From: Propionibacteriaceae bacterium
Lineage (GTDB): Bacteria; Actinomycetota; Actinomycetes; Propionibacteriales; Propionibacteriaceae
NCBI GenBank assembly: GCA_031256725.1
Contig: JAIRQE010000010.1
Span: 1 to 32,000 of the forward strand
Direction of reading: 5' to 3'
Length of the DNA: 32,000 nt
The notes under the pieces are model-generated. The model ran no database searches, had not been told where the DNA came from, and was given only the letters and a program-made list of their open reading frames with translations. Each line of letters begins with the position of its first letter. The stretch's first letter is position 1. Positions 8,901 to 31,890 of the stretch are shown here, one piece after another. The position numbers were made by a program, and so were the translations under genes.

Positions 8901-9085
8901 ATTTGTCTGCACGATCATAGGCTTTCGGGACCCATCACGGCATAAAATCATGGAATTCACATCTCATATGCTGGGTTCAGCGGGTCGATACCCGCCACGC
9001 CAGTAGCGTGTCAGTATTCTTCTTCGGAAAACAAAGAAGCAATTCCGTGAATATCTTCGCGTCCCCCATTAACAGGAGGTTCCTA

Positions 9086-10672
9086 ATGATTCGACGTACA
9101 GTCGTCATCATGTCGGCCTTGGCCGTCGCCGCGCTAACTCTTACCGGGTGCGCCCAGCCAGTTGATCCAGTCGATCCAGGCAGTGATGCACCCACTAGCA
9201 CAGAGCAGATTGTTATCGACACCACCTTTGATATTGCAACTATTGACCCAGGTCGTGAGTACGAACCAACAGGTCAGATTGTTGTGAAGGCTCTCTATGA
9301 CACTTTGTTGACCTTTGCCGACAACGACACCACAACCGTCATCCCCGATCTTGCGGAATACACCGCCAACGATGACCTGACAGAGTTTGTGTTCACCCTC
9401 GTGGGTGACCGCGTTTTCTCTGACGGTACTGCGGTGACCGCTGACGATGTCGTCTTCTCCCTCAACCGCCTCATTGGTATGAAGGGGAATCCTTCCTTCC
9501 TCCTTGATGGTGTCACCATCACAAAGACTGATGATGTAACGATCACGATGACAACCGAGGAATCCAATCCGGCACTTCCAGCCGTCTTGGCTACACCATC
9601 GGCGGGTATCCTCAACTCCAAGGTAGTCATCGACAACGGTGGTACAACCGACGAGTCTGATGGCGCCGAGACCTATCTGAACTCCAATTCTGCTGGTTCA
9701 GGGCCCTATGTTCTCGAAATGATGGATGTGGCCACTCAGGCTATCCTCGTCAAGAACGAGAACTACAACGGTTCCCAGAAGCCAACCTATGAGAAGGTCA
9801 TCCTCCGCAATGTCGAGCCAGCCACCCAGAAGATGAATGTCGAGCGTGGTGACGCACAGGTTGCTATGGGTCTGTCAGGTGATCAGGTTGACGCTCTTGA
9901 TTCGTCCGTGAGCGTATCTTCGACTCCGTCAGCCACAGTGGTCTTCCTGCTTATGAACTCCAACCCTAAGGTGAACGAGTTCACAGCCAAGCCCAAGTGT
10001 GTTGAGGCTGTTAAGGCTGCTTTGAACTACGAGTCCATCCTTGAATTAGCTGGCCGAGGTGCATCCCAGGCAACTGGTGTGGTACCTGCTGGCTTCCTTG
10101 GTGCACTTCCGCAGTCCGAGGCACCCAAGTACGATCTTGAAGCTGCTAAGGTCGCTGCAACCGAGTGTGGCATGACAGAGTCCACAATCACATTGTCTTT
10201 GCCTAATGACATCGACCCGGCAGGTACATCCCTGACAACGGTCGCACAGCGTATCCAGCAGCAGCTTGCCGAAGCAGGGATCACCGTCGAGTTGGCTCCA
10301 GCTCCATTCGCAACCGAGATTGATGCATACCGTACAGGTAAGGAGCAGATCGGTCTGTGGTACTGGAATCCAGATTACATGGATCCGGCTAACTACCTCG
10401 CTTTCGGTCCTGGTCAAACAGTTGGTTTGCGTGCCGGATGGACTGCTGAGATGAACCCAGCAGCTGCCGAACTCGTAGCCAAGGCATACACCACTGGTGA
10501 TCTGAACGATCGCAAGACCCTCTTCCAAGACTGGGGTCGTTTGATGAATGCTGAATCACCATTCATCCCGCTCATTCAGCCTGGTTCCAACGTGGCTCAC
10601 CAGCCATCTGTGACCAACGTGTACTACAACCCAACGTGGTTGATCAATGTCGCAGGGCTTGGAGCAGCCTAA
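9086..10672 (+). CDS. ABC transporter substrate-binding lipoprotein, family 5 (peptide/nickel, DppA/OppA/NikA-like)
   Basis: ATG at 9086 sits 6 nt after AGGAGG (9074-9079). The N-terminus MIRRTVVIMSALAVAALTLTGCAQP is a lipoprotein signal peptide with lipobox LTGC. Its length (about 528 aa) and its position ahead of two permeases and two ATPases fit SBP family 5. The ORF-track start at 9008 adds 26 non-signal residues and is unlikely. Confidence 0.85.
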   Translation: MIRRTVVIMSALAVAALTLTGCAQPVDPVDPGSDAPTSTEQIVIDTTFDIATIDPGREYEPTGQIVVKALYDTLLTFADNDTTTVIPDLAEYTANDDLTEFVFTLVGDRVFSDGTAVTADDVVFSLNRLIGMKGNPSFLLDGVTITKTDDVTITMTTEESNPALPAVLATPSAGILNSKVVIDNGGTTDESDGAETYLNSNSAGSGPYVLEMMDVATQAILVKNENYNGSQKPTYEKVILRNVEPATQKMNVERGDAQVAMGLSGDQVDALDSSVSVSSTPSATVVFLLMNSNPKVNEFTAKPKCVEAVKAALNYESILELAGRGASQATGVVPAGFLGALPQSEAPKYDLEAAKVAATECGMTESTITLSLPNDIDPAGTSLTTVAQRIQQQLAEAGITVELAPAPFATEIDAYRTGKEQIGLWYWNPDYMDPANYLAFGPGQTVGLRAGWTAEMNPAAAELVAKAYTTGDLNDRKTLFQDWGRLMNAESPFIPLIQPGSNVAHQPSVTNVYYNPTWLINVAGLGAA

Positions 10673-10684
10673 GAAGCTAGTCGA

Positions 10685-10713
10685 GCCGCCGTCCCCCGAG
10701 CGGGGACGGCGGT
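10685..10713 (+). promoter_or_regulatory. GC-rich intercistronic stem-loop just after the SBP stop codon
   Basis: GCCGCCGTCCCC (10685-10696), a 5-nt loop CGAGC, then GGGGACGGCGGT (10702-10713). That is 11 Watson-Crick pairs plus a terminal G-U, with no T-tract after it. The position, 13 nt after the SBP stop, matches the mRNA-stabilising or attenuating hairpins often found between SBP and permease genes. Confidence 0.5.
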
Positions 10714-10724
10714 CCTACTATGGC

Positions 10725-11738
10725 TTGATTCGATACCTGGGCAAGAGACTTGTTCTGACAGTCATCCTGCTCATAGGGATCACGTTGGTGACCTTCACCC
10801 TTACCAATCTTGTTCCTGGTGACCCAGTGGCGGCTGCCCTTGGTCAACGAGCTGCCGATGATCCACAGATCGTTGAGCGTTTCCGCCAGGAGTTTGGGCT
10901 TGATAAGCCACTTCATGAGCAGTACTTCTCTTATCTTGGTCGCCTCATTCATGGTGATTTGGGGATGTCCTGGCAGACTCGACGTCCCGTCGCCCAGGAC
11001 TTGGCAGGAGCCATACCAGCCACAATGGAGATCGCTTTCACCGCCATCACCATGGCCGTGATCCTGGGTCTGGTTTTGGGTTCTATCGCCGCCTATCGAC
11101 GCGGGAAGATCACCGATCAGGTCGTACGTTTGATCTCCCTGCTTGGGATCTCTGTACCAACCTTTTGGACAGCAATCCTTTTCTTCTACCTCTTCTATTA
11201 TCGACTCGGTATTGCCCCCGGTTCGGGGCGACTCTCACCAGGAATGCCAGCCCCACCACGAGTGACAGGTATGTATACAGTTGACTCTGTTTTGGCTGGG
11301 GATATGCGTACCTTTGTGGATGCTGCAGCCCACCTAGCCCTACCCTCCCTTGTCCTTACTTTCTTTACTGTGGGTCTACTGACCCGCTTCTCCCGTATGG
11401 CTCTGCTTGAGGTTCTCGACAAAGATTTTGTACGCGCCGCCCAAGCTAAAGGATTGCCTGCACGTACCGTCTTCGTAAGATATGTACTCAGGGCAGCTGC
11501 GGTTCCAATCCTCACCATGGTCGGACTTGCCTTCGGCTCCCTCCTATCGGGTACAGTCCTGGTTGAATCAATCTTCTCCTGGCCAGGATTGGGTTCTTAT
11601 GCCTACCAGTCGGCTTCCAAACTTGATCTGCTTGCCGTCATGGGGGTGGGACTCTTCGTGGGTGTGGTCTACCTGACGATCAACCTGATTATCGACATCG
11701 CCTATGGCTTCATTGACCCGAGAGTGAAGGTGGGATGA
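10725..11738 (+). CDS. ABC transporter permease (DppB/OppB-like)
   Basis: A multi-TM protein with the typical N-terminus (M/L)IRYLGKRLVLTVILLIGITLVTFTLTNLVPGDP. I prefer the TTG start at 10725 because it reproduces the family's conserved N-terminus and lies downstream of the hairpin. The ORF-track ATG at 10647 would overlap the SBP gene and encode the hairpin. The stop overlaps the next gene's start (ATGA at 11735-11738). Confidence 0.8.
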   Translation: MIRYLGKRLVLTVILLIGITLVTFTLTNLVPGDPVAAALGQRAADDPQIVERFRQEFGLDKPLHEQYFSYLGRLIHGDLGMSWQTRRPVAQDLAGAIPATMEIAFTAITMAVILGLVLGSIAAYRRGKITDQVVRLISLLGISVPTFWTAILFFYLFYYRLGIAPGSGRLSPGMPAPPRVTGMYTVDSVLAGDMRTFVDAAAHLALPSLVLTFFTVGLLTRFSRMALLEVLDKDFVRAAQAKGLPARTVFVRYVLRAAAVPILTMVGLAFGSLLSGTVLVESIFSWPGLGSYAYQSASKLDLLAVMGVGLFVGVVYLTINLIIDIAYGFIDPRVKVG

Positions 11739-12598
11739 TGGACACTATTCCACGTCGCTCGCTCACACGGCGTATCTGGCGCAAGATTCCGCGTGAGATC
11801 CGAATGCCTGTTGGAGCAATCGCTGTCTTCATTGCTTTCGGATGGATCGTTATATGCATCATTGGGCCTTCAATTGTTCCCTTTGATCCACTTGCCCAAA
11901 GCCTTCCACGATTCCAACCCCCCGGTTCTCAGACATGGTTTGGTACAGATGAACTTGGGCGGGATCTCTTCTCACGGGTCATCGTGGGGGCGAGGGTCAC
12001 GATTGCCTTAGCTCTTCTGTTGGTTATTGCCTCAATGATCATTGGTTCACTGATTGGTTTGATCGCTGGCTTCTTCGGGCGCTGGGTTGATGAAGTACTC
12101 ATGCGCATGACCGATGTTGTCTTGGCCTTCCCTACAGTCATCTTGGCCATGGTGACGGCTGCGGCTTTGGGAGCCTCGCTGTTTAACGCCGTACTAGCAG
12201 CCCTGATTGTGTCATGGCCCCCCTATGCTCGAGTTGTACGATCCATGGTGCTGTCCCTGCGTAATGCTGACTTTGTGTCCTCGGGGCGCTTGCTTGGATT
12301 CTCGCCACTGAAATCTATACGACTGGATGTTCTCCCCAATGTGGGAGGGCCAACACTTGTACTGGCCAGCCTTGATATTGGGAATGCGGCACTGTTACTT
12401 TCGGGATTGTCCTTCCTGGGCTTGGGGGCTAAGCCACCCACACCGGAATGGGGTTCGATGATCTCTGCTGCAGTCGTCAACTTCGACAAATGGTGGTTGG
12501 GGTGGTTCCCTGGTTTGGCGATCCTCACAGTGGTGATCTCCTTCAATTTCCTAGGTGATGCTCTGCGCGATACCTTCGATACGGAGGTGAGATCATGA
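11735..12598 (+). CDS. ABC transporter permease (DppC/OppC-like)
   Basis: 287 aa with multiple hydrophobic segments. ATGA overlaps at both ends indicate translational coupling. It is the second permease in the operon. Confidence 0.85.
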   Translation: MMDTIPRRSLTRRIWRKIPREIRMPVGAIAVFIAFGWIVICIIGPSIVPFDPLAQSLPRFQPPGSQTWFGTDELGRDLFSRVIVGARVTIALALLLVIASMIIGSLIGLIAGFFGRWVDEVLMRMTDVVLAFPTVILAMVTAAALGASLFNAVLAALIVSWPPYARVVRSMVLSLRNADFVSSGRLLGFSPLKSIRLDVLPNVGGPTLVLASLDIGNAALLLSGLSFLGLGAKPPTPEWGSMISAAVVNFDKWWLGWFPGLAILTVVISFNFLGDALRDTFDTEVRS

Positions 12599-13449
12599 CT
12601 GGGCTACGCATTGAGAACCTGAAACTTGAGATTCGTACCGAGGATGAGGTCAAACCCATCTTGAAGGGTGTGGATCTCAGCGTTGATGCGGGAACCGTTC
12701 AAGGATTAGCAGGGGAGTCAGGTTCAGGAAAAACCATGACAGGGTTGGCCATCATCGGCCTGGAACCCCCAACGGCTATCACCAGCGGAAAGATCATGTT
12801 GGGGGATACTGACCTCCTCCAGATCACGGGAAGTCGACTCAACACGATTCGAGGAAACCGGGTCGGTATGGTCTTTCAAGACCCCTCGACCTCCCTCCAT
12901 CCCCAGTTGTCTATTGGATCCCAGTTGACCGACCACGTACGGTACCACCTCAAGATTTCCAAGAGTGAGGCACGAGATCGTGCCGTTGGTGCGTTAGAGC
13001 GAGTGGGTATCACAGGTGGGCTTGCCACCTTGAGTCGGTATCCCCATGAATTCTCTGGTGGCCAGCGCCAACGTATCGCCATAGCCATTGCACTAGCCTG
13101 TGATCCCGAGTTGGTCATCATGGATGAACCCACGACAGCCCTCGACGTCACAGTTCAAGCTGGGGTCCTGGAGTTGGTACGACGCCTGGTCGACTCCCTG
13201 GGATTAGCCGTGTTGTTCATCTCCCATGATCTGGGTGTGATGAGTGCCATCGCTGATGATGTGGCTGTGATGAGACATGGGGTTGTCGTGGAAAACGGAC
13301 CCAGCTCCCAGGTCTTCACCAACCCTCACCATGAGTACACGCGTGCCCTGTTGGCATCTCTGCCTGGTACCACCTCTGGTCCCCAAACCAAGGGAGATTT
13401 GGTACGCCTTGCTGAAGGCTCCCAGGATTGTGAAGGTGGTGCATCATGA
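12595..13449 (+). CDS. ABC transporter ATP-binding protein (DppD/OppD-like)
   Basis: Canonical motifs: Walker A GESGSGKT, signature FSGGQRQRIAIA, Walker B VIMDEPTTALD, H-loop ISHDL. Confidence 0.9.
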   Translation: MTGLRIENLKLEIRTEDEVKPILKGVDLSVDAGTVQGLAGESGSGKTMTGLAIIGLEPPTAITSGKIMLGDTDLLQITGSRLNTIRGNRVGMVFQDPSTSLHPQLSIGSQLTDHVRYHLKISKSEARDRAVGALERVGITGGLATLSRYPHEFSGGQRQRIAIAIALACDPELVIMDEPTTALDVTVQAGVLELVRRLVDSLGLAVLFISHDLGVMSAIADDVAVMRHGVVVENGPSSQVFTNPHHEYTRALLASLPGTTSGPQTKGDLVRLAEGSQDCEGGAS

Positions 13450-14339
13450 CTGAAACAGAACCACATATGTCAGGGGACGTATCTCCTGGCTCATCCACTA
13501 GGGCCGTACTTTCCGCAAGGGATGTCGTTGTGGACTATCCAGGTCACCCAGCCCTTCGAGCCGTTGACGGTGTCTCCTTTGATGTACACCCAGGTGAAGT
13601 CATCGGTTTGGTGGGGGAGTCAGGATGCGGAAAATCCACGATGGCCCGCGTACTCACAGGTTTGTTGAAGCCTAATGCTGGCGAGATCCTCTATAACGAC
13701 CAACCCCTGAAACCCCTTGGAATTGGTGGGCGTGCTGCTGATTCCACAGGTATTCAGATGGTTTTCCAGGATCCAGGATCCTCCCTGAATCCTAGGCGCA
13801 GAGTTGGGCCACAGATACAAGATGGTCTTGATGCTGCGAGGCGTCGCTTGGGTCGTACCCTCAAAGAGGGCCACCCAACCACCCCGGGTCAATGGCTCGA
13901 ACGCATTGGTATGACCCCATCTGATGCTGAGCGCTTCCCAAGAAGCTTTTCGGGTGGTCAACGTCAACGTATTGCTACCGCACGTGCCCTGGCAGCCGCT
14001 CCAGACGTCCTGATTGCCGATGAACCCATCTCGTCCCTGGATGCCTCCACCCAGGCCCTAGTCGCCTATGTCATGAGTTCCTTAACCGTAGCGGAGGGGG
14101 CCGGAATGCTGTTTATCTCCCATGACTTGGCCGTGGTACGCCTCATCGCTGATCGCCTCCTGGTGATGTACAAGGGCCGAATCGTGGAACGTGGACCCGC
14201 AGAAGAAATCTGGGCCGACCCACATCACCCCTACACCAAGGCGCTCCTGGGTGCCATCCCCCTACCTGACGGAGCCGGGAAACTACCCGCAGTCACCCCT
14301 CCTGGTACACAGTACCCCCTCGAGGAAGTGGTACGTTAA
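13446..14339 (+). CDS. ABC transporter ATP-binding protein (DppF/OppF-like)
   Basis: Walker A GESGCGKST, signature FSGGQRQRIATA, Walker B LIADEPISSLD, H-loop ISHDL. There is an ATGA overlap with the upstream ATPase gene. Confidence 0.9.
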   Translation: MTETEPHMSGDVSPGSSTRAVLSARDVVVDYPGHPALRAVDGVSFDVHPGEVIGLVGESGCGKSTMARVLTGLLKPNAGEILYNDQPLKPLGIGGRAADSTGIQMVFQDPGSSLNPRRRVGPQIQDGLDAARRRLGRTLKEGHPTTPGQWLERIGMTPSDAERFPRSFSGGQRQRIATARALAAAPDVLIADEPISSLDASTQALVAYVMSSLTVAEGAGMLFISHDLAVVRLIADRLLVMYKGRIVERGPAEEIWADPHHPYTKALLGAIPLPDGAGKLPAVTPPGTQYPLEEVVR

Positions 14340-19556: not shown

Positions 19557-19814
19557 TTACCAGTCTTTGCGTAATTCTTCAAGAAAGTTGTCAGGGAACG
19601 CCCCGGATAGAATCCCTTGTGATTCAGCTATTGCTTTCCTTCGAACAGCTCTCTTCGCCTCTCGCTCATCGGCCAAAGCCTGAGAACCGAGCACTATCAA
19701 TTGAGTTGCGATCTTGCTTTTGGGGGCATCCGGCCACCGGGAAGCAGCAGCCTCAAGAGCATCTTGAACCTGGTCCGTGAGTGTGATCTGAATACGCGGC
19801 AGAGTGGTAGCCAT
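19557..19814 (-). CDS. vapB: VapB-type antitoxin (ribbon-helix-helix-like N-terminus)
   Basis: 85 aa. MATTLPRIQITLTDQVQDALEAAA fits an RHH beta-strand plus helix. It is followed by a charged linker and a C-terminal FPDNFLEELRKDW toxin-binding-like tail. It sits immediately upstream of vapC. Confidence 0.75.
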   Translation of the reverse strand: MATTLPRIQITLTDQVQDALEAAASRWPDAPKSKIATQLIVLGSQALADEREAKRAVRRKAIAESQGILSGAFPDNFLEELRKDW

Positions 19815-19822
19815 AAGGATAG

Positions 19823-19850
19823 TGTACCACTGAACATCTTTAGTGGTACA
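19823..19850. promoter_or_regulatory. Operator-like perfect inverted repeat upstream of vapB
   Basis: TGTACCACT (19823-19831), a 10-nt spacer, then AGTGGTACA (19842-19850), 9 to 36 nt upstream of the vapB start codon (19812-19814 on the minus strand). An extra half-site, AGTGGTA, lies at 19803-19809. TA operons are typically autoregulated at such palindromes. Confidence 0.5.
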
Positions 19851-19925
19851 GATGCTGGATGGCGAAGACAGTCATGGCACGACACGGTGGTGAACGTCGC
19901 GAAATTAACATTTGTCGTTACTCCA

Positions 19926-20168
19926 GTGGAGCGATTGGTTTCCGCATACCTTGACCTAGCCGAGTCAATGGCTATGAAGCGAATTCCCATGACGATGGAA
20001 GACTGGGAGGAACGGCTCAATGGATTTCCGGCCATAGCCGATCGTGAGATTCTCCAAGATGCTGGAAGAGTGAGCGCAGAGATCGCGAAAGCTCATGTAG
20101 AAACAGAGTTTGAGGAATATCGCATCGCCCAGGATGCGCTCTTTCGTTCGGACTTCGACAGATTCTAG
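19926..20168 (+). pseudogene. 3' remnant of a rhuM-family (virulence protein RhuM-like) gene
   Basis: The last 80 or so codons of ORF 19701-20168 read VERLVSAYLDLAESMAMKRIPMTMEDWEERLNGFPAIADREILQDAGRVSAEIAKAHVETEFEEYRIAQDALFRSDFDRF. From memory this matches the conserved C-terminal region of RhuM-family proteins, which are about 330 aa long when intact. The upstream part of the ORF is antisense to vapB and shows no such similarity. Confidence 0.6.
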
Positions 20169-21605: not shown

Positions 21606-21827
21606 ATGGCATATACGGTGGTACGGGTCCGTCTTCAAGGATGGACAGACAAGTTCCAGGATTTCGAGTCCGATACTGATTTTGGCGCGCAGGCCTATCC
21701 GGGCCTGGATAATTATCTATCAACGATGGAAATCAGGGGTTGGACAGTTGTTAATACCGCTGTCGCTTCCACAGGTGCTGGTATTCCAGCCCACCTCATG
21801 ATCACCCTTCACCGACCTGATGCTTAG
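21606..21827 (+). CDS. Small protein paralog 1 (DUF4177-like by motif; function unknown)
   Basis: 73 aa: MAYTVVRVRLQGW...FESDTDF...YPGLDNYLSTMEIRGWTVVNTAV...HLMITLHRPDA. The SD AAAGGGA is 5 nt upstream. It shares the MAYT(V/M)VR...D(H/T)DF...YP.LD.YL(S/T)TME.RGW.IV...(T/F)(L/F)HRPE scaffold with the four downstream copies. Confidence 0.7.
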   Translation: MAYTVVRVRLQGWTDKFQDFESDTDFGAQAYPGLDNYLSTMEIRGWTVVNTAVASTGAGIPAHLMITLHRPDA

Positions 21828-21963
21828 TGTCCACCAACAAGGTATCCTCATGAATAACCTCATGAATCCTGGATGTGTTGATGAAGACTGGCTGACTATT
21901 TGAGCGGAGTCATTCTGTGGAAGAACTTTGTACGCAAGGATAGATATTTTACGGGTACCCATC

Positions 21964-21969
21964 TAGAGT
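21964..21969 (+). promoter_or_regulatory. Candidate -10 (TAGAGT) plus conserved leader for paralog 2
   Basis: cTAGAGTtaTATCACATCGATATGAAAGGAAtgtcATG; the leader is 28 nt and carries the SD AAAGGA. It is homologous to the leaders at 22665 and 22926. Confidence 0.4.
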
Positions 21970-21997
21970 TATATCACATCGATATGAAAGGAATGTC

Positions 21998-22204
21998 ATG
22001 GCGTACACGATGGCGTGAGTCCCTCTGATGAGTACATGGAAGGACCCCTGTGAAGAAGTTCAGGATGATCACGATTTTAAAGTGAGGAACAATAGTGCAT
22101 TGGATGAGTATTTGACTACCATGGAGTCACGAGGCTGGTCGATTGTCAATGTCATCAATTCTGATTCCGTAACCTTCCTGATTACTTTTCACAGATCGGA
22201 GTAA
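21998..22204 (+). pseudogene. Small protein paralog 2, interrupted by an in-frame TGA at codon 7
   Basis: atg gcg tac acg atg gcg TGA (22016-22018), then the same frame continues: VPLMSTWKDPCEEVQDDHDFKVRNNSALDEYLTTMESRGWSIVNVINSDSVTFLITFHRSE, stop at 22202-22204. A restart at ATG 22028 would give a 58-aa product lacking the conserved MAYTxVR strand; that is below the ORF-track cutoff. Confidence 0.6.
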
Positions 22205-22275
22205 CCACGAATCCAGGATTGCGAAGATTGGCCGATAACGAGCCTCATGATTAGCCGAATGATTGTGAGGAAACC

Positions 22276-22497
22276 ATGGCTTATACAGTCGTACGAATCA
22301 AGCTTGGGATTTGGAAAGAAAGATTCAAGGAAACACCCACCGACTCTGATTTCGATGTGGATACCTATCCAGAGATGGATGAGTACCTCTCAACGATGGA
22401 GGAACGTGGCTGGTCCATAGTGAACACTGCCGTCAGTTCTGGTAGTAATGGAGTGGCCTACTATCTGCTGGTGACCCTCCATCGCCCCGAGGTATGA
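22276..22497 (+). CDS. Small protein paralog 3 (DUF4177-like by motif)
   Basis: 73 aa: MAYTVVRIKLGIWKERFKETPTDSDFDVDTYPEMDEYLSTMEERGWSIVNTAVSSGSNGVAYYLLVTLHRPEV. The SD GAGGAA is upstream. It is closest to paralog 1. Confidence 0.7.
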   Translation: MAYTVVRIKLGIWKERFKETPTDSDFDVDTYPEMDEYLSTMEERGWSIVNTAVSSGSNGVAYYLLVTLHRPEV

Positions 22498-22502
22498 CCC
22501 GT

Positions 22503-22571
22503 TATACTGCGCGCAAGTCGCAGCATCCAGACCCCAGGATTCCTGGATTCTGCGACTAAAGCGCAGAATGA
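22503..22571. repeat. Conserved intergenic hairpin element, copy a (partner at 23175-23242)
   Basis: taCtGCGCGCAAGTCGCAGCATCcAG...GGATTCTGCGACTaaaGCGCAGAATGAC. It contains the perfect inverted repeat AGTCGCAG/CTGCGACT, flanked by GCGC/GCGC. Confidence 0.7.
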
Positions 22572-22664
22572 CGATGTGTGGTTATTCCCCTCAGCCAGAG
22601 GAAGCTTCTTGATCTGCCCCCCGCAGAAGGAACGGAGTCATTCTGTGGGGACTGTCGATGTGAC

Positions 22665-22670
22665 TAGACT
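22665..22670 (+). promoter_or_regulatory. Candidate -10 (TAGACT) plus conserved leader for paralog 4
   Basis: cTAGACTcgTATCACATCGATATGAAAGGAAatgtcATG; the leader is 29 nt. Confidence 0.4.
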
Positions 22671-22699
22671 CGTATCACATCGATATGAAAGGAAATGTC

Positions 22700-22906
22700 A
22701 TGGCGTACACGATGGTGAGGGTTGGACTGTGGGGATTTCGTGATCCCTTCAAGGAAGTCGAGGATGATCATAGTTTTAAGACGCGAGCCTATCCCGACCT
22801 AGACGACTACCTCACGTCTATGGAGTCTCGTGGCTGGAGGATCGTCACAGTGAACCCTTTGCCTGATGGATTAAATATGCTCATTACATTCCATAGACCT
22901 GAGTGA
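22700..22906 (+). CDS. Small protein paralog 4 (DUF4177-like by motif)
   Basis: MAYTMVRVGLWGFRDPFKEVEDDHSFKTRAYPDLDDYLTSMESRGWRIVTVNPLPDGLNMLITFHRPE. The start was chosen at the family-conserved MAYT with the SD AAAGGA upstream. The ORF-track start at 22685 (MKGNV-) uses an ATG inside the conserved leader that is out of frame in paralog 5. Confidence 0.7.
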   Translation: MAYTMVRVGLWGFRDPFKEVEDDHSFKTRAYPDLDDYLTSMESRGWRIVTVNPLPDGLNMLITFHRPE

Positions 22907-22925
22907 CCGTGTACCTGGCCACGGC

Positions 22926-22931
22926 TAGACT
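22926..22931 (+). promoter_or_regulatory. Candidate -10 (TAGACT) plus conserved leader for paralog 5
   Basis: cTAGACTttagTATCACGTCGATATGAAAGGAAcgccATG; the leader is 30 nt. Confidence 0.4.
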
Positions 22932-22961
22932 TTAGTATCACGTCGATATGAAAGGAACGCC

Positions 22962-23165
22962 ATGGCTTACACAATGGTACGAATCCCTATGGTAGGTGTC
23001 TTCTCAAGCCCCTTCAAAGTAGTTGAGGATGACCATGACTTTAAAGTGAAAAACCATCCCGAGTTGGATGATTATCTGACGACCATGGAGTCGCGAGGAT
23101 GGGCAATCATATCCGTTGAGTCCTTCGGTGAAGGAATCCTCGTGACCTTTCACAGACCTGAGTAG
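22962..23165 (+). CDS. Small protein paralog 5 (DUF4177-like by motif)
   Basis: 67 aa: MAYTMVRIPMVGVFSSPFKVVEDDHDFKVKNHPELDDYLTTMESRGWAIISVESFGEGILVTFHRPE. It is closest to paralogs 2 and 4. Confidence 0.7.
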   Translation: MAYTMVRIPMVGVFSSPFKVVEDDHDFKVKNHPELDDYLTTMESRGWAIISVESFGEGILVTFHRPE

Positions 23166-24183: not shown

Positions 24184-25557
24184 ATGATTGATGTGACGGA
24201 CCTGACTAAGAGGTTCGGTAGGAAGACTGCTGTCGACGATTTAAGCTTCTCCGTGCGCGCAGGTATGGTTACCGGATTCTTGGGACCCAATGGGGCAGGT
24301 AAGTCCACAACAATGAGGCTCATTCTTGGCCTTGATCGACCCAACAACGGTCGTGCTCGCGTTAATGGTCGTACCTACAAATCCACTAAGGCGCCTATGA
24401 CAGAGGTTGGTGCCCTTCTTGACTCCAAATCTGTACACCCTGGACGTACTGCTCGCAATCATCTTCGTGCGCTGGCGGCCACCCATGGAATCTCACGGAA
24501 ACGAGTCGATGAAGTCATCGAGATGGTTGGCCTTGAGTCTGTTGCCAGAAAGCGGGCTGGTACCTTCTCCCCAGGGATGAGCCAACGCCTAGGGTTAGCG
24601 ATCGCATTATTGGGAGATCCGCAGACTCTCATCCTTGATGAGCCTATGAACGGGCTTGATCCTCAGGGGGTTGCATGGCTCCGAAACCTCTTGGAGCATC
24701 TGTCATCTGAGGGGAGGACAGTCTTCGTTTCAAGCCATCTCATCTCAGAAATGGCTCAGCTTGCCAGTCATCTCATTATCATCGGTAGGGGACAACTCAT
24801 CGCGGATTCACCCACGGCTGAGCTTGCCGAGAAAGGGTCAGGCGTTGTCACGCGTGTGAGATCCCCTGAATTGGGAGAACTTGCGGAAGCGGTCAAGGAA
24901 GCCGGTCATACTTATACCGATCCGGGGGATGGATCACTGTTGATCTCAGGATTGACCCCGGACGCCATTGGTGATGAGGCGGCTTACAGGGGCTGGGCAA
25001 TCTATGAGATGGCTCCAGTACACCGCACCCTGGAGGAAATCTACATGGAGTTGACCCACTCCGTGCAGGAGTTCCAGGCAGAAAACAGCATCTTCGGGTC
25101 TCCAATGAGGAGTCCTTCAAAGCCACCCGTCATACTAAAACCACCCGTGTCCATGCATACGATTCCCCACGAAGCGCCTGTCCAACATCACCGTCGCGAT
25201 GTGGAGCCCCAAAGTCTCACAACCACGGGAAGCCATCGAGTGACCGATATTTTCCGTGACGACGATACCCCACCACCTGATCCTGTACACATATCAACTC
25301 CCCATTTGCAGTTGGGGCCGGTACGATCTCCCCAAACACGTCCGGGACGAGCACCCACAGATTCGATCGTGCCAAGCGACCTGGGGCCACATGTGCGGCC
25401 AAGGCCTATGGGAGTCCATCCCAGTGCAGATTCATGGGATGACTCCTATGATGATACCCGCATACCTGAGTCTTATGACTACGACTCCTATGACTCTGAT
25501 TATGATGACGATGATGATTACGCCCATCCCCCCAGATCCCGGGCATGGGAGGTCTGA
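24184..25557 (+). CDS. ABC-2-type exporter ATP-binding protein with a roughly 155-aa disordered C-terminal extension
   Basis: NBD: Walker A GPNGAGKST, signature FSPGMSQRL, Walker B LILDEPMNGLD, H-loop SSHL. The domain ends near TLEEIYMELTHSVQEFQAE. From about nt 25081 the sequence is low-complexity: Pro-rich, then SADSWDDSYDDTRIPESYDYDSYDSDYDDDDDY. Confidence 0.9.
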   Translation: MIDVTDLTKRFGRKTAVDDLSFSVRAGMVTGFLGPNGAGKSTTMRLILGLDRPNNGRARVNGRTYKSTKAPMTEVGALLDSKSVHPGRTARNHLRALAATHGISRKRVDEVIEMVGLESVARKRAGTFSPGMSQRLGLAIALLGDPQTLILDEPMNGLDPQGVAWLRNLLEHLSSEGRTVFVSSHLISEMAQLASHLIIIGRGQLIADSPTAELAEKGSGVVTRVRSPELGELAEAVKEAGHTYTDPGDGSLLISGLTPDAIGDEAAYRGWAIYEMAPVHRTLEEIYMELTHSVQEFQAENSIFGSPMRSPSKPPVILKPPVSMHTIPHEAPVQHHRRDVEPQSLTTTGSHRVTDIFRDDDTPPPDPVHISTPHLQLGPVRSPQTRPGRAPTDSIVPSDLGPHVRPRPMGVHPSADSWDDSYDDTRIPESYDYDSYDSDYDDDDDYAHPPRSRAWEV

Positions 25558-26411
25558 TGGCGAGAGTAAAACTGTCCTTCTTTAGGATGATCAGAGCCGA
25601 ATGGATCAAGATCTTTACAGTACGTTCAACCGGCTGGATCCTGCTCCTGTGTATTCTGATCAGCATAGGACTCTCTGCCGCTTTTGCTGCCTCTCTCCAG
25701 TACTCGGAGGTCATGCTCAGACGTAGCTCGGAATCCTCAGACCTCGACCCTGGGGCCTTTGGGCCCCTCGTGGTCCATGTGGTGATGGCCTGTGGACTTT
25801 TTGGGCAATTGTTTTTCATGATCCTGTCTATCCTCATGATCACCAACGAATACTCAACGGGTACGGTTCGCTCGACCTTCACAGTCGCCCCCCGACGGAT
25901 TCGTGTACTCATCTCAAAGATGCTTGTTCTTGTGGTGATCTGTGTTGTCACTTTCGCTATTTCTGTGGTGGCATCCTGGGCGGTGGGGTACCTCATCTTG
26001 CAGAATTGTGTACTCACGGACCTGACACTCATCTCGTATACGAATCTGAGGATAGCGGGGGGATTCCTGGCGAAGATGGTACTCGTGTCTCTCTTCTGTT
26101 TTGGCCTTGGCGCCATGATCCGTTCCACTGCCGGAAGCATTGGTACCTCTGTGGCTATTCTGTGGGTGCTACCTATCATCGCTGCGACTGTTGCTTCAAT
26201 GATCTCTGGTGCGGGTGAGCCCGTTGGTTGGCGCGAGTGGATCGTCAAAATAGGGGAGTTCCTTCCCACGAATGCTGGTGATCTGATCATCCAAGAGAAC
26301 CCATCATCACGGGTATTCCTCCCGTGGGGAGGAACCGCAGCACTTGGAGGATGGGCCTTCGGGTCGATCATCCTTGCCTTCATAGCAACTGCCAGGCGCA
26401 GGATTCAATGA
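25557..26411 (+). CDS. ABC-2 family transporter permease
   Basis: The N-terminus MARVKLSFFRMIRAEWIKIFTVRSTGWILLL and six or so hydrophobic segments are typical of ABC-2 permeases. The ATG at 25557 overlaps the ATPase stop by 1 nt (TGATG) and follows GGGAGG. The ORF-track start at 25545 is an alternative. Confidence 0.85.
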   Translation: MARVKLSFFRMIRAEWIKIFTVRSTGWILLLCILISIGLSAAFAASLQYSEVMLRRSSESSDLDPGAFGPLVVHVVMACGLFGQLFFMILSILMITNEYSTGTVRSTFTVAPRRIRVLISKMLVLVVICVVTFAISVVASWAVGYLILQNCVLTDLTLISYTNLRIAGGFLAKMVLVSLFCFGLGAMIRSTAGSIGTSVAILWVLPIIAATVASMISGAGEPVGWREWIVKIGEFLPTNAGDLIIQENPSSRVFLPWGGTAALGGWAFGSIILAFIATARRRIQ

Positions 26412-27518: not shown

Positions 27519-29261
27519 GTGAGCGATCAATCTCAACGTATTCCTTTCAGCTCGCGTGGTAGTTCAGCGCGCGCAGATGGGCGCTCGTCGAGGGTACGAC
27601 CCTCATCTGGTTCGCCACGAAATGTCGAACCAGAGTTGACAGCCATGTTTGGCGAGGAGGAAGTCCTACGCCGCCCCCCAGATCCATTTGAGGAGAAGAT
27701 CTTGACCGGACGAAACAGTTTCACCGATCTCAGAGACCACCTAGCCGAAGAAGACACTGACAGGCCACGTTCAGGATCATCTGGCAGTTCGCGTGTACCA
27801 CGGACACCGGCAACCAGATCCCGGGTCGGTGCAGCAGGGGATTCCAAGGTTGCCGCATTGAGGCGAGACCTGGCTGGGGGTGGAGGAAGCTCTCGCTCTT
27901 CTGCTGCAGATTCCAGATCGCGTTTCTTGCAAGAGGACGATGTGGTCGAGACACGTCCCCGCAGTAGGGTTTCCTCAGATTCTGAAGAAAGACTTGCCTC
28001 GCTCAGGCGTGAGTTGGCTGATCGCAGAGCAGCTACCGCTGATCCTGCTCCACGGGTACGCCCCTCAGCACCAAGTGCACGCAGGCCGCGAGTGAGTCGT
28101 GAAGAAGAGGTGGAGATCCGCGAACGCGCTACACAAGAACTACCACCTCGCTCTAGGCGCCCTGTCGTCGACGATCCGCCACCGCGCAGGGTCCCACGTA
28201 CGCGACCCCCAGTTGAAGAGTACGACTATGAAGAGCCTTTCGAAAACTTCGAGCCAGAAGTAGAGACACCTCCACCACCACCGAGGCAGCGTCGTACAAC
28301 CACACGTAAGCCAGTTGAAGTAGTCGAAGTGATCGAGGAGATCGAAGAGGAGGACCTGGGTCCATCCTTTGAGCCTCCCCAGGTGATAGAGGAAGAGCCT
28401 CCAGTTATTGCTATTCTTGAGGAAGCTCCAGTCGAGCCGCCAGTTGAAAAGAAGGAGACTCGTCGTCGAGCTAAGACACCCAAGGCTGAACCTGCTCCGG
28501 TTGTGACTCCCTCACGTGCGCCACGGGCCGCAACAGGGGAGATCGCAAAGATTTCTGGGCTAACTAAGATCATTGGGAGTTCGTCACAGAAGACAGAGGT
28601 ACTTCGCAGGGTTGATCTCGTACTCGGTCAAGGGCAGATGACAGCGATCATGGGTTCCCCCGGCGCTGGCGTGTCAACACTGATTCAATGCATCGCTGGT
28701 ATCGAATCCCCAACATCGGGATCAATCACGGTGGCTGGTCAGAACATCACAGGGTTCAAAGAAGGGCAACTGGCCAAGTTCCGACGCAGCAATGTGAGCC
28801 ACGTCTTCTCAGCCTTCAACCTGATCCCGACCCTAACAACGGCAGAGAATATTCGTCTGCCTATGATCCTTCAGAAGAAGTCTGTGGATTCGGCTTGGTA
28901 CGACCAGGTTGTGACAACCCTGCACCTCACGGATGCGCTCACCCACAAGCCAAGCGCTTTGAGCCCGTCTCAGCGCCAGCGCGTTGCCTTTGCGCGGGCT
29001 CTGTTGGGTAAGCCTGCGATTATCGTTGCAGATGATCCGACTGCGGATCTCAACCAGGAGGCCAGTGTTGAACTCATTGGTTGGGTCAGGGATTGTATGT
29101 CCATATCCGAGCAGTCCATTGTTGTGGGTACGCAGGACCCCATCCTTGCCGCCATGGCTGACCGTGTCTGCGTGATGAGAGATGGTGTCATTGTAACCGA
29201 GATCAGTTCGCCAAGTGTGAGCCGCGTCATGGACGCTCTTCGTACAGTGGCGGGTGGTTAA
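27519..29261 (+). CDS. MacB/LolD-type ABC nucleotide-binding-domain protein with all catalytic motifs degenerate and a 340-aa disordered N-terminal extension
   Basis: GTG start with GGGAGA 8 nt upstream. Residues 1-340 are R/P/E/S-rich low complexity. From nt 28539 the sequence aligns colinearly with the MacB-type NBD consensus, but with these changes. Walker A is GSPGAGVST (Lys to Val, gtg at 28671-28673). The Q-loop is HVFSAFNL (Gln to Ser, 28809-28811). The signature is LSPSQ (28959-28973). Walker B is IIVADDPT (catalytic Glu to Asp, 29031-29036). The D-loop is DLN. The H-loop is VGTQD (His to Gln, 29133-29135). Confidence 0.85.
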   Translation: MSDQSQRIPFSSRGSSARADGRSSRVRPSSGSPRNVEPELTAMFGEEEVLRRPPDPFEEKILTGRNSFTDLRDHLAEEDTDRPRSGSSGSSRVPRTPATRSRVGAAGDSKVAALRRDLAGGGGSSRSSAADSRSRFLQEDDVVETRPRSRVSSDSEERLASLRRELADRRAATADPAPRVRPSAPSARRPRVSREEEVEIRERATQELPPRSRRPVVDDPPPRRVPRTRPPVEEYDYEEPFENFEPEVETPPPPPRQRRTTTRKPVEVVEVIEEIEEEDLGPSFEPPQVIEEEPPVIAILEEAPVEPPVEKKETRRRAKTPKAEPAPVVTPSRAPRAATGEIAKISGLTKIIGSSSQKTEVLRRVDLVLGQGQMTAIMGSPGAGVSTLIQCIAGIESPTSGSITVAGQNITGFKEGQLAKFRRSNVSHVFSAFNLIPTLTTAENIRLPMILQKKSVDSAWYDQVVTTLHLTDALTHKPSALSPSQRQRVAFARALLGKPAIIVADDPTADLNQEASVELIGWVRDCMSISEQSIVVGTQDPILAAMADRVCVMRDGVIVTEISSPSVSRVMDALRTVAGG

Positions 29262-29266
29262 TCGGT

Positions 29267-31828
29267 ATGAAGGGTGTCAAAGTTGGTGTTCAGGGAAGCC
29301 CTGGACGCTTGGTACTCGCCGTCCTAGCTGTAGTGTTGGGAATGGCTGTTGCGTCGTTCGCTCTCTTCCTGCGTGGATCAGTGACAACAACACTGTCCAC
29401 AGTCGTGGACAAGGTGCTAAGCGCTGATGTGTATATTCTGCCGGCGGATTCCAGTCCTGCCGATATGATGACCCAGCCTAAGGTTTATCAGAAGTTCCTT
29501 GATTCGCGTGTGACTGCGCAGATTTCTGTGATACCTGAGGTGAGGGGAGTCTTCTCGGTTTATGTTGGTCAGGTTCAATTAACGAAGTCCGATGGTACCG
29601 TAGTCTCATCTGGAGTAGCCCCATCGGTTGGCATCGGTGTTGATACTAATGAAGTTGAGTCATCGCGGCTGATAGATGGTGCCTTCCCGACCAGTCCCTC
29701 GGAAATCGCTGTGGAGCAGGCAACTGCCGAACGAGCTGGATTATCTGTTGGTGACAAAGCTCAATTAATAGCCAATGGCAATAGGTTCGACCCCGAAGTC
29801 ACGATCTCAGGCATTGTCTCCTATGATTCTGATCTTGGTGGGGCTACCGTGGTCTTCCTCAACGGTATCGTTGCTCGCGCAGTATTCTCACCATCGTCGA
29901 TGGTACCTCTGATCGCTGTACGGGTACAGGATGATGCGAGTCCTGCCGATGGTCGCAATGCCATTGAGGCTGCTCTTGAGAGCGAAGTCGACGCGAAGAT
30001 TGTGGTTGGTTCCGAGCTCCGTAAGCAGACGGTAAGCTCTGCAATGAACTCCTTGTCCACCCTTGGGATTGGTCTGCTTATTCTGGCTGGCTTGGGTGTC
30101 GCTATCGGTGGTCTCCTCGTTGGCGCAACCTTTGCAGGGGCTCAGCGGGAGAATATCTCTACGATTGCCACCTTGAAGGCATTCGGTGCAACGACCAGCC
30201 AAGTACTCGGTAAGTCCATATCCCAGGCTGCCGCAGTTGGATTCATCGGATCCATCTTCGGGATCGCCATAGGATTCGTCGTGGCTGTCCTTGTGAGAGC
30301 GATCATGACGGCACAGGGTCTGGCTCTCAGTCTGGGTATTCCCGTGATCGAATTGGCGCTCTGCTTTGTCGCGATGATGATTGTCACCATTCTTGCGGCC
30401 TGGCTTGGGTCCCGCAGGGTGGCGAATGTTGCCCCCCGCGAGGCGATAAACGGTTTTGCTGCGGGTAGGTCTGGTCTAGGTCTGGTACGCGTCATCATAG
30501 GTGTTGTCCTCATCCTCGCCGGAGTTGGTGCTGCCATGTGGGTCGTCTTCTCGTCCCAGTCTGCCCTGATTATCTATGCGGGTTTGGTAGCCATCCTCAT
30601 GGGGGTCTTGCTCGCTGCACCACTGTTACTTATAGCGTTCGCTCCCATTTTCGCGGCCCCGCTTAGACTCATCTCTTCAGTGTCTGGACGCTTGGCCAAA
30701 CACAATCTCATCCGCAGTCCTCGTCCTGCCGCTAATGTTGCGGGCGTTATGATTCTTGGTTTCTCACTGGCAACAGCAGGATTGATTATCGCCTCCACTG
30801 CAGACGCAGCTATTGGTGATTCACTGCACAGGGATGTACCTGCTGACTATGTCATTCAGCCGGATAGCGGTAATAGTTTCATCCCTGATCAGGCTGTTGC
30901 TCAGGTACGTCAGATCCCTGGTCTCAGTGTTGTTGCCTACGGGCAAGCCCCAGTACGGGTACTCAACGATGAGGGCAAGGTTCTTGATGCCGATGTGCTC
31001 TTTGGTCCACCGGATACCTTCTCTTCCAGTCTCAGTGAGGTTGCCATCGTTGATGGGGCTCCTGAGCAATTCCGTGATGGGTTGGCTCTCAACAAGGCTT
31101 TTGCTGATGCTCAAGGAATACGTGTCGGTGATACACTCAAACTGCTCGTAGCACAGGACACCCCGCACGAAGACACCCTGTCCTTGTCGGTGGCGGTGAT
31201 TGTGGATTCGCAGTTCTTCCGTGACGTGCTCATCCCGACAGGGCTTCTCATTGAGCCGATTCCTGGCCATGCACGTACACAGTTCATGCCGATTACTACA
31301 GTGTTCATTACGGCAGCCAATGAGGGTACAGTTCAGGTTCTGCGTGACCAGATCCAAGAGGCACTATCTGGGTATGAAGGACTTAAACTCTCTTCTCGTG
31401 ACGAGTTTATTTCCACTCCCTCACCAGTGGTAACACAGATTCGTACAGCGGCCTTGATCCTTATTGGTTTGGTTGCCCTCGTCGCCATTGTCGGGATATC
31501 CGTCATCCTAGGTCAGGCAGTTATCCAACGTGAGAAGAACATCGGTCTGATGAGGATTAGTGGGGCCTCCCGTGGACAGATGAGGCGGGCGGTCACATTC
31601 GAGTCGCTGCTGATCTGTGCAACGAGTGCCTTCGTGGGTATCCTCGGTGGTGTGGGTCTGGCATATCTTGGTTTGCGGATACTTCCAAGCCTTGGCATGA
31701 CGACTCTGGTTTTCCCATGGCTGTGGATTGTCGGACTCTTTGTTGTGGCACTCCTAGTAGGATTTGTCGCTGGTATTGCCCCTGCGCGACGCGCGGGTTC
31801 AGTACCTCTACTGACAATGGCAGCCTAG
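29267..31828 (+). CDS. Large FtsX-family ABC permease with two FtsX domains (10-TM, MacB-like duplicated architecture)
   Basis: 853 aa, starting 5 nt after the NBD gene's stop. It has an N-terminal TM helix, a periplasmic-type domain of about 215 aa, then FtsX domain 1 (ATLKAFGATTSQVL...). This is followed by extra TM helices, a second extracytoplasmic domain and FtsX domain 2 (IGLMRISGASRGQMRR...). The size and layout resemble the mycobacterial Rv0987-type permeases, recalled from memory. Confidence 0.88.
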   Translation: MKGVKVGVQGSPGRLVLAVLAVVLGMAVASFALFLRGSVTTTLSTVVDKVLSADVYILPADSSPADMMTQPKVYQKFLDSRVTAQISVIPEVRGVFSVYVGQVQLTKSDGTVVSSGVAPSVGIGVDTNEVESSRLIDGAFPTSPSEIAVEQATAERAGLSVGDKAQLIANGNRFDPEVTISGIVSYDSDLGGATVVFLNGIVARAVFSPSSMVPLIAVRVQDDASPADGRNAIEAALESEVDAKIVVGSELRKQTVSSAMNSLSTLGIGLLILAGLGVAIGGLLVGATFAGAQRENISTIATLKAFGATTSQVLGKSISQAAAVGFIGSIFGIAIGFVVAVLVRAIMTAQGLALSLGIPVIELALCFVAMMIVTILAAWLGSRRVANVAPREAINGFAAGRSGLGLVRVIIGVVLILAGVGAAMWVVFSSQSALIIYAGLVAILMGVLLAAPLLLIAFAPIFAAPLRLISSVSGRLAKHNLIRSPRPAANVAGVMILGFSLATAGLIIASTADAAIGDSLHRDVPADYVIQPDSGNSFIPDQAVAQVRQIPGLSVVAYGQAPVRVLNDEGKVLDADVLFGPPDTFSSSLSEVAIVDGAPEQFRDGLALNKAFADAQGIRVGDTLKLLVAQDTPHEDTLSLSVAVIVDSQFFRDVLIPTGLLIEPIPGHARTQFMPITTVFITAANEGTVQVLRDQIQEALSGYEGLKLSSRDEFISTPSPVVTQIRTAALILIGLVALVAIVGISVILGQAVIQREKNIGLMRISGASRGQMRRAVTFESLLICATSAFVGILGGVGLAYLGLRILPSLGMTTLVFPWLWIVGLFVVALLVGFVAGIAPARRAGSVPLLTMAA

Positions 31829-31843
31829 ATTCTTGACAAAACT

Positions 31844-31876
31844 AAAGGGCTGGTACCTTCTCGGTACCAGCCCTTT
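31844..31876. terminator. Bidirectional rho-independent terminator between convergent genes
   Basis: AAAGGGCTGGTACC (31844-31857), loop TTCTC, GGTACCAGCCCTTT (31863-31876). This is a perfect 14-bp stem with A-run and T-run flanks, so it can terminate both the permease (+) and groEL (-) transcripts. Confidence 0.85.
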
Positions 31877-31890
31877 ATGTTTGGACTTAG

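Follow-up and report, generated by a model that had tools for sequence, protein, structure and literature searches.

A MacB/LolD-type nucleotide-binding domain with a fully substituted ATP site and a disordered arm beside a YbbP-like permease in Propionibacteriaceae: a candidate pseudo-ATPase scaffold

Introduction

Can an ATP-binding cassette (ABC) protein in which every catalytic motif has been substituted still be retained for a function, or is its gene decaying? This question is raised by a two-gene module in 32,000 nt of DNA from a Propionibacteriaceae bacterium (assembly GCA_031256725.1, contig JAIRQE010000010.1, positions 1 to 32,000), the whole of which is here called the window. The first gene encodes a long disordered N-terminal arm followed by a MacB/LolD-type nucleotide-binding domain (NBD); the product of this open reading frame (ORF; 27519..29261) is referred to as the window copy, and its domain as the window NBD. 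The second gene encodes a fused double-FtsX permease. Type VII ABC systems (MacB, LolCDE, FtsEX, YbbAP, and BceAB) are understood as ATP-driven machines that work outside the membrane. A preliminary description, made from the sequence alone, had proposed that this NBD is a retained pseudo-ATPase rather than the product of simple decay. The analysis presented here leads to the view that the window copy is probably, if far from certainly, a retained pseudo-ATPase scaffold. The valuable part of what is new is the series of natural variants found at one locus, while the fully dead copy rests on one uncultured lineage.

Loss of the ATP site in the window NBD

The fold of the domain is readily recognised. 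The full Pfam ABC_tran profile (PF00005, positions 1-137) aligns to aa 362-509 with 98.6 bits (cut-off 25; E=5.8e-28), and the top NCBIfam models are LolD, DevA, YbbA, MacB, and FtsE, all of them far under their equivalog cut-offs. The top PDB sequence matches are MacB-type NBDs, including 5xu1 and BceA, and Foldseek searches with the AlphaFold2 (AF2) model of the domain return YbbA, BceA, and the MacB NBD, with TM-scores of up to 0.92.

Motif positions were set by residue-wise alignment to solved NBDs (5xu1 and BceA) and to canonical actinobacterial orthologs. In this alignment the six motif substitutions listed in the preliminary description, in Walker A, the Q-loop, the signature, Walker B, the D-loop, and the switch, all stay in place (Table 1), and a seventh lost motif, the A-loop aromatic residue (I352), can be added to that list. 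None of the eight key ATP-site residues is kept, the window copy reading IVSPSDNQ where the canonical set is YKQGGEDH. The Walker A glycines (GxxGxG), the following Ser/Thr, and the Walker B Asp505 are retained. Judged by its sequence, the window NBD would have lost both ATP binding and ATP hydrolysis. The eight substituted codons differ from canonical codons by at least 13 nucleotide changes; change at every one of the eight catalytic positions, with two nucleotides altered at five of them, indicates a long time without constraint on catalysis.

A family with a gradient of degeneration

Searches of the protein database, GTDB genomes, and JGI metagenomes, together with an exhaustive profile search with the arm motif, gave a family of 20 distinct full NBD sequences, the window copy included, found only in Propionibacteriaceae metagenome-assembled genomes (MAGs) or unbinned metagenome contigs. 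A candidate from the arm-motif search, P0126, was an unrelated repeat protein and was rejected. The MAGs that can be traced (Emb289, Lab288, and Nt197) are from higher-termite hindguts (PMC7024585). The genes lie in the core chromosome in strict synteny, in the order rpoA, rplQ, serS, HAD hydrolase, ABC-2 ATPase, ABC-2 permease, CDF transporter, arm-NBD, FtsX permease, and a convergent groEL, and the permease has no MacB-type NBD beside it other than the arm-NBD in any of the syntenic loci. The window copy belongs to this family by its arm motifs, its non-canonical signature, and its CDF-NBD-permease-groEL synteny; the other members are 44-56 % identical to the window NBD.

The arm is present in 20 of 20 members, with Walker A starting anywhere from residue 323 to residue 517. 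It holds five elements in constant order: MS(D/E)QSQ, a block of ~50 residues, RIAELRRDL, SRSRFF, and DRIAALRRDLA.RR. The ~50-residue block reads ...AIFGEDELLRHPPDPFEEKILTGRNSF.DLRDQLAQE... in the family (also written FGEDELLRHPPDPFEEKILTGRNSF.DLR).

The ATP site, in contrast, is degenerate to varying degrees. The canonical LSGGQ signature occurs in 0/20 members, the closest being LSSGQ (L009 and L011) and LSTGQ (L022), and several signatures contain acidic residues (LSASE, LTADE, and LTPEQ). The Q-loop Gln is present in four of the 20. The switch His is replaced in the window copy (Q), L003 (A), L010 (T), and L025 (S), and the Walker A Lys in the window copy (V) and L010 (L), while the catalytic Glu is replaced in the window copy alone. 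The other 19 members therefore keep the Walker A Lys in 18, the catalytic Glu in 19, and the switch His in 16 cases. Counted over the eight key residues, L009, L011, and L022 keep seven, L010, L025, and L026 keep three, and the window copy keeps none. When orthologs are compared for both the substitutions and the N-terminal extension, the arm is thus found in all, but the full substitution set is confined to the window lineage. The unit of interest would be the family more than the single gene, since the degeneration appears as a family-wide gradient.

On a neighbour-joining (NJ) tree, which is a simple distance tree without support values, the window copy groups as sister to L012 (with L001), L010 groups with L025, and L003 with L022. 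Because the degenerate members do not form one clade on this tree, the pattern implies repeated losses, with at least three apparently independent losses of the switch His and two of the Walker A Lys.

L010 (1575-3470) and L025 (2855-4744) form a second, independently degenerate clade. In L010, Walker A reads GLPHAGLTD (Lys to Leu), the switch reads TTTD, and there is a deletion in the A-loop. In L025 (P0124), the switch is ATSD and the D-loop SRLT, and an 851-aa permease ORF is intact downstream.

More distant relatives of the permease are common among actinobacteria such as Streptomyces, Nocardia, and Kineosporiaceae. Two such distant loci were inspected, from Streptomyces griseomycini (L044) and a member of the Kineosporiaceae (L045). 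These have the same gene order, with a 256-263-aa NBD upstream of an 842-875-aa permease of MacB_PCD-FtsX-MacB_PCD-FtsX architecture that is 25-29 % identical to the window permease over 98 % of its length. Their NBDs are 42-44 % identical to the window NBD (ungapped columns) and share its W(Y/F)D.V motif and C-terminal helix, but they are arm-less and fully canonical (GPSGSGKST, FQAFNL, LSGGQQQRV, DEPT, LD, and THD). Both the arm and the loss of canonical motifs thus arose in the Propionibacteriaceae clade.

A permease of YbbAP-type topology

The AF2 model of the permease (predicted local distance difference test, pLDDT, 80.8; predicted template modelling score 0.75) has 10 transmembrane (TM) helices, extracellular domains at aa ~55-247 (between TM1 and TM2) and ~528-716 (between TM7 and TM8), and two non-identical predicted coupling helices at aa ~297-305 (after TM2) and ~756-764 (after TM8). 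Foldseek ranks E. coli YbbP first (9ge6_A; E=3e-23), with a TM-score of 0.63-0.67 across the full length. LolE and MacB are also matched, and homologs of the permease carry MacB_PCD. As in type VII ABC systems, a MacB/LolD-subfamily NBD gene adjoins the gene of an FtsX-fold permease with Porter/Sabre-type domain(s), and the modelled topology agrees with that published for YbbAP in its 10 TM helices, the domains at TM1-2 and TM7-8, and the coupling helices after TM2 and TM8. The earlier assignment to a MacB/FtsX-type module is therefore kept at the level of the type VII family; within it, YbbAP is closer and FtsEX or MacB fit less well.

YbbAP(-TesA) (PDB 9GE6/9GE7/9GE8) is the closest solved system, sharing with the module its fold, permease topology, Porter/Sabre-type domains, NBD subfamily, and separate NBD gene. 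YbbP has 10 TM helices, YbbA and YbbP assemble 2:1, and YbbA binds AMP-PNP conventionally (PMC12646458). The window NBD model superposes on YbbA with a TM-score of 0.92 and a root-mean-square deviation of 1.8 A. The differences are nevertheless large: sequence identity to the window module is only 15-17 %, the equivalog models are missed (NF041854 YbbP, 27.5 bits against 999; NF007879 YbbA, 136 against 336), the host here is Gram-positive and not E. coli, and the window NBD adds a 340-aa arm and is without the catalytic residues. No TesA-like hydrolase gene is present in the conserved neighbourhood, which is flanked by the CDF transporter and groEL genes; an unlinked partner is possible.

The idea that a homodimer of this NBD would contain two dead sites, put forward in the preliminary description, gains from these comparisons, as the fused permease is YbbP-like and the YbbAP stoichiometry is 2:1. 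By analogy, both ATP sites of the complex would be dead. The segment of the coupling-helix groove that flanks the Q-loop, VFSAFNLIPTLTTAENIRLP, is identical at 16 of 20 positions to that of the canonical Kineosporiaceae ortholog.

Retention versus decay

Consensus positions outside the ATP site were taken as the columns in which the two canonical outgroups agree, with ATP-site columns left out. The window NBD keeps 71 of 131 such positions (54 %), compared with 50-66 % in the other 19 members, and its 0/8 catalytic positions differ from this proportion (Fisher p=0.003). Over 21 ATP-site columns it keeps 48 %, where most members keep 67-95 %. In a leave-one-out comparison, the window NBD loses 12 positions that are at least 85 % conserved in the family, about seven of them in ATP-site motifs, and the remaining losses are mostly conservative (A to V, L to I, and L to M). 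The ratio of NBD to permease distance is 0.86 for the window copy and 0.76-0.90 for the others, the NBD being more conserved than the permease, and the root-to-tip length of the window NBD on the NJ tree is 0.677 in a family range of 0.615-0.726. Relaxation in the window NBD is site-specific, not global. L009 and L011, the sole close pair, give ratios of non-synonymous to synonymous substitution rates (dN/dS) of 0.037 (NBD), 0.17 (arm), and 0.13 (permease), and in this pair the module is under purifying selection.

The strongest competitor is that the NBD-permease pair is weakly selected or unselected in this host-associated clade, and that the window copy is simply dead and so far uninterrupted. 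The module is the fastest-evolving part of a conserved core region, with neighbouring genes 70-95 % identical between the family genomes and the arm-NBD and permease only about 40-50 %; such fast evolution could partly reflect weak constraint. The repeated losses of catalytic residues across the family fit with this, as does the fact that the window copy and L010 lose the most family-conserved positions. Against it, the 580- and 853-codon ORFs are intact, as in all other loci that cover them, and wherever a locus extends into the permease gene its ORF is unbroken, also in L003 and L025 with their His-less NBDs. All eight catalytic positions are replaced, apparently for a long time, yet the remainder of the domain is family-typical, the arm motifs are nearly invariant, conservation is still higher in the NBD than in the permease, and purifying selection is strong in L009 and L011. 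Decay is for these reasons considered improbable.

Several points weigh against retention and should be set beside this evidence. The window copy loses five of 32 family-invariant residues, somewhat above most members. The complete loss of the ATP site is seen in a single lineage, represented by one MAG and one Logan assembly, both possibly from one sample. The protein database, GTDB, and the JGI metagenomes yielded no relative above about 56 % NBD identity, apart from near-identical sequences that represent the window's own contig under different names, and between the window copy and L012 (NBD identity 55 %) the synonymous distance is saturated (Nei-Gojobori), which makes dN/dS on the branch of the window copy unusable. 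The survey of MacB-type NBDs covered the 32-kb window and the syntenic loci. The AF2 model of aa 340-580 (pLDDT about 85-95) was made with the family alignment as input, so that its fold leans on homologs and is not independent proof. The partner proposed for the arm is putative.

A retained pseudo-ATPase is still the best-supported of the two readings, given the site-specific loss, the absence of acceleration, and the kept arm motifs; its weak point is the complete loss in one lineage. The preliminary description had named as adverse the combination of canonical motifs in close orthologs with relaxed selection in this copy. The first half is found in part, as the orthologs keep most of the Lys, Glu, and His residues, but generalised relaxation is not seen.

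The disordered arm and a proposed mechanism

In the AF2 model of the window copy, aa 1-338 mostly have a pLDDT below 50, except for the helices listed in Table 1. This prediction agrees with the disordered arm described previously, and the features that were named there (VAALRRDLA, LASLRRELA, PPPRR, PPPPPRQRR, and VEVVEVIEEIEEEDL) are all present. No Pfam domain is found in the arm of the window copy, which keeps all five conserved arm motifs; the linkers between them have diverged across the family past alignment. Arm motif 1 has 19 invariant residues in family alignments A1 and A2, making it the best-conserved block of the two-gene module, and in an exhaustive HMMER search of 1.84 billion representative proteins the matches of its profile were confined to the arm-NBD family. 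The variable part, aa 174-339, holds an acidic block and a basic ETRRRAK patch directly before the NBD. The near-invariant arm helices argue for a putative conserved cytoplasmic binding partner or for self-association.

The module may be seen as a clade-specific derivative of a YbbAP-like type VII complex, in which two NBD copies would serve each fused 10-TM permease and the ancestral partner NBD would have been short and fully canonical. In the Propionibacteriaceae group, largely from termite guts, the NBD would have gained a disordered arm of 320-520 aa with five short motifs, a gain accompanied by loss of the canonical signature and, usually, of the Q-loop Gln. Because LSGGQ and the Q-loop Gln are lost family-wide, ATP turnover is probably weak across the family, and was probably so already when the arm was acquired. 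In the window lineage this degeneration is complete, all eight key residues being replaced, so that neither site of the homodimer should bind or split ATP, and selection would remain on the NBD fold, the coupling-helix groove, and the arm motifs. The dead NBD would then dock on both coupling helices of the permease and hold the arm at the membrane, as a scaffold and not a motor, presenting it to a putative conserved cytoplasmic partner or to itself. Both the scaffold role and the existence of an arm partner are put forward in this conditional sense. For the permease this would mean either a nucleotide-free-like state, as ATP-sandwich dimerisation would be absent, or switching by an input other than ATP. 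Nucleotide-free YbbAP exposes a pocket on the periplasmic side (PMC12646458).

A bolder version, which is thought rather doubtful, is that the module is an ATP-free device. The arm helices might replace ATP-driven NBD closure through a partner, self-association, or phosphorylation, or signalling might run in reverse, from an extracellular event through the arm to the cytoplasm. If this were true, the window copy would represent the end state, in which both sites are dead and ATP is proved dispensable.

Other explanations for the missing residues

A consensus ABC site is built from Walker A, Walker B, and the switch His of one NBD and the signature of the other. A mixed pair could therefore be envisaged, with the dead arm-NBD on one coupling helix and a canonical MacB-type NBD from elsewhere on the other, giving one active site. 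The coupling helices of the permease are non-identical, the portion of this genome inspected is 32 kb, and ABC systems that combine an active site with a degenerate one are well known (review PMC7756269). The window NBD supplies neither the Walker/switch half nor the signature half, however, so that no complete canonical site could form with it. The four other ABC ATPases of the window all fall outside the MacB type, no second MacB-type NBD lies beside the permease in the syntenic loci, and the 5-nt spacing between the two genes suggests that the arm-NBD and permease are co-translated. An active mixed pair is thus regarded as unlikely. With respect to neighbouring ATPases, the preliminary description had called this NBD the only adjacent one; it is the sole MacB-type NBD beside the permease, but a canonical DrrA/ABC-2-type ATPase lies 2 kb upstream with its own permease (24184..26411). 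That ABC-2 system is separate from the module, conserved in synteny, and not MacB-type.

In ABC NBDs, changing the Walker A Lys is usually enough by itself to abolish hydrolysis and to make binding much weaker. The suggestion that the window NBD is a residual nucleotide sensor, binding weakly through the backbone of the glycine-rich loop and acting as a slow switch rather than as an ATPase, has to contend with this, since the Walker A Lys, the A-loop aromatic residue, the Q-loop Gln, and the switch His are all missing from the window copy. The GxxGxG glycines, Asp505, and the following Ser/Thr are kept, and most family members combine Lys, Glu, and His with a degenerate signature, which would fit binding without fast hydrolysis. 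For the window copy, such a sensor is given little credence, about as little as the mixed pair.

A sequencing or assembly artefact, conceivable where the source is a MAG, is effectively refuted, since two assemblers gave identical sequence over 8.27 kb, the substitutions are in-frame, scattered, and amount to at least 13 nucleotide changes, and related degenerate variants occur in independent metagenomes.

Comparison with known systems

MacB, LolCDE, and FtsEX have in common with the module their NBD subfamily and an FtsX fold with a large extracellular domain. Their permeases are dimerising 4-TM proteins, and their action requires that ATP be bound and hydrolysed (PMC12646458, PMC11627006), whereas here the permease is a fused 10-TM protein and the NBD is predicted to be catalytically dead. 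An FtsEX identity was rejected, as the scores fall short of the models (FtsE, 125 bits against 264.85; FtsX_actino, 16.9 against 250; FtsX_Gpos, 18 against 225) and the permease, with its 10 TM helices and two extracellular domains, is unlike the 4-TM FtsX with its single extracellular domain. Likewise, FtsEX-like activation of a hydrolase was rejected, there being no linked hydrolase, adaptor, or EnvC/PcsB-like gene and no match at the level of the FtsE and FtsX models.

BceB has a single large extracellular domain and acts together with a BceS-type kinase. The NBD model has BceA as its top Foldseek match, and the BceAB permease is likewise a fused 10-TM protein, but BceB fits the permease model much less well (TM-score 0.32-0.47), and the permease here has two extracellular domains. 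No kinase gene was found among the annotated neighbours of the module.

ABC transporters with one degenerate site (TmrAB, TM287/288, CFTR, and ABCB11; review PMC7756269) also tolerate, and conserve, a non-canonical Walker B Glu, switch His, and signature. In the known cases one consensus site is always retained and the degenerate site still binds ATP, whereas in the module a single gene provides both halves and the Lys is also lost. The open-access literature yielded no precedent in which both sites are degenerate, either among type VII or among homodimeric ABC systems.

A loose analogy is offered by Rv1747 of M. tuberculosis, an actinobacterial ABC protein in which the NBD is preceded by a long regulatory region with a disordered segment. 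Rv1747 has a different transporter fold and an active NBD. It reportedly has FHA domains (Spivey et al. 2011). The window arm differs in having no Pfam domain, and its motifs are unrelated and private to the arm-NBD family. In Rv1747, the disordered segment controls clustering through multivalent interactions, and the N-terminal module is phospho-regulated (PMC8573418).

The one-locus series runs from near-canonical NBDs (L009 and L011), through NBDs with a degenerate signature and Q-loop, to one with no catalytic residues, with the fold, permease, and arm conserved. It offers a comparative set for a non-hydrolytic role of the NBD, for an ATP-independent role of the permease, and for what the arm recruits. 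It also cautions against the annotation of such genes as 'ABC transporter ATP-binding protein'.

Features of the module and its DNA

The positions and sizes of the ORFs given earlier, the 5-nt gap, the intact frames, and the 853-aa double-FtsX permease all agree with the coordinates and Pfam results obtained here (Table 1).

Table 1. Features of the arm-NBD and permease module, in window coordinates
Feature	Position	Strand	Details
Arm and degenerate NBD gene	27519..29261	+	580 aa, GTG start; identical to NCBI MDR0488455.1
Arm motif 1, ...AMFGEEEVLRRPPDPFEEKILTGRNSFTDLRDHLAEED...	27618..27767	+	aa 34-83; three short helices predicted (36-51, 56-62, 67-78)
Arm helix 2, VAALRRDLA	27834..27881	+	aa 106-121; conserved; AF2 helix 109-119
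Arm motif SRSRF(F/L)	27909..27941	+	aa 131-141; conserved segment
Arm helix 3, SEERLASLRRELADRRA	27978..28037	+	aa 154-173; AF2 helix, block-mean pLDDT up to 87
Variable R/P/E-rich disordered part	28038..28535	+	aa 174-339; low conservation, pLDDT <50
MacB/LolD-type ABC NBD	28536..29258	+	aa 340-580, fold retained; Pfam, NCBIfam, PDB alignments, AF2
A-loop, Ile352 (ATT) for aromatic Tyr/Phe	28572..28574	+	alignment
Walker A GSPGAGVST, Val385 (GTG) for Lys	28653..28679	+	alignment
Q-loop, Ser431 (TCA) for Gln	28809..28811	+	alignment
Signature LSPSQ (P483, S484 for Gly-Gly) for LSGGQ	28959..28973	+	alignment
Walker B IIVADD (Asp506 for catalytic Glu), D-loop ADLN (Asn512 for Asp)	29019..29054	+	alignment
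Switch, Gln539 (CAG) for His	29133..29135	+	alignment
Fused double-FtsX permease gene	29267..31828	+	853 aa, intact; Pfam FtsX x2
15-bp perfect hairpin, TAAAGGGCTGGTACC-GAGAA-GGTACCAGCCCTTTA	31843..31877	.	between permease stop and convergent groEL

The GTG start is backed by the conserved MS(D/E)QSQ N-termini of the orthologs, and GGGAGA lies upstream of it. The gap between the two genes runs from the TAA at 29259-29261 to the ATG at 29267. The NCBI MAG protein (MDR0488455.1; P0122) is identical to the whole window copy, and over 8270 bp a second assembly (Logan, SRR14710887) agrees with the window DNA at 100 % identity, although both assemblies may share one sample; the substitutions are not errors. 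The hairpin likely marks the end of the operon as a bidirectional terminator, the groEL next to the module having been identified on locus L019. Rfam and tRNA scans of the window gave no matches.

Neighbouring genes

The canonical ABC-2/DrrA-type ATPase upstream (24184-25557, + strand) has a disordered D/Y/P-rich tail of about 160 aa. In its orthologs (L001-L013), the tail ranges from 40 to about 800 aa (L009, 1102 aa in total), and most end in RRAW. In this clade, two neighbouring ABC systems thus both have NBDs with long disordered extensions. A likeness between 'DIFRDDDTPPPDP' in the ABC-2 ATPase tail and 'AIFGEDELLRHPPDPFEE' in the arm was rejected as chance, since the orthologous tails show no conservation.

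Five tandem small paralogous ORFs of 73, 58, 73, 73, and 67 aa are present at 21606-23165 (+ strand), with the consensus MAYT.VR...D.YL(S/T)TME.RGW.IV...TFHRPE; the N-terminus of copy 2 is disrupted. A conserved element, TATCACATCGATATGAAAGGAA, precedes at least three of the copies. The array occupies a 1.66-kb gap between serS and the HAD hydrolase gene, a gap of about 290 nt in L001, and the sole family similarity, to DUF4177, is sub-threshold (E=0.027).

A 155-aa ORF (19701-20168, + strand), probably a gene fragment, lies between rplQ and serS in a stretch of lower G+C content (0.49-0.51). Its match to the RhuM virulence-protein family is limited to the C-terminal part of the profile (177-248 of 252).

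At the start of the window (10-8808, + strand), a gene encodes a giant surface adhesin of 2932 aa, with 24 Big_1 repeats, Invasin_D3, and SpaA-like domains. Next comes a complete Dpp/Opp-type peptide ABC importer (9008-14339).

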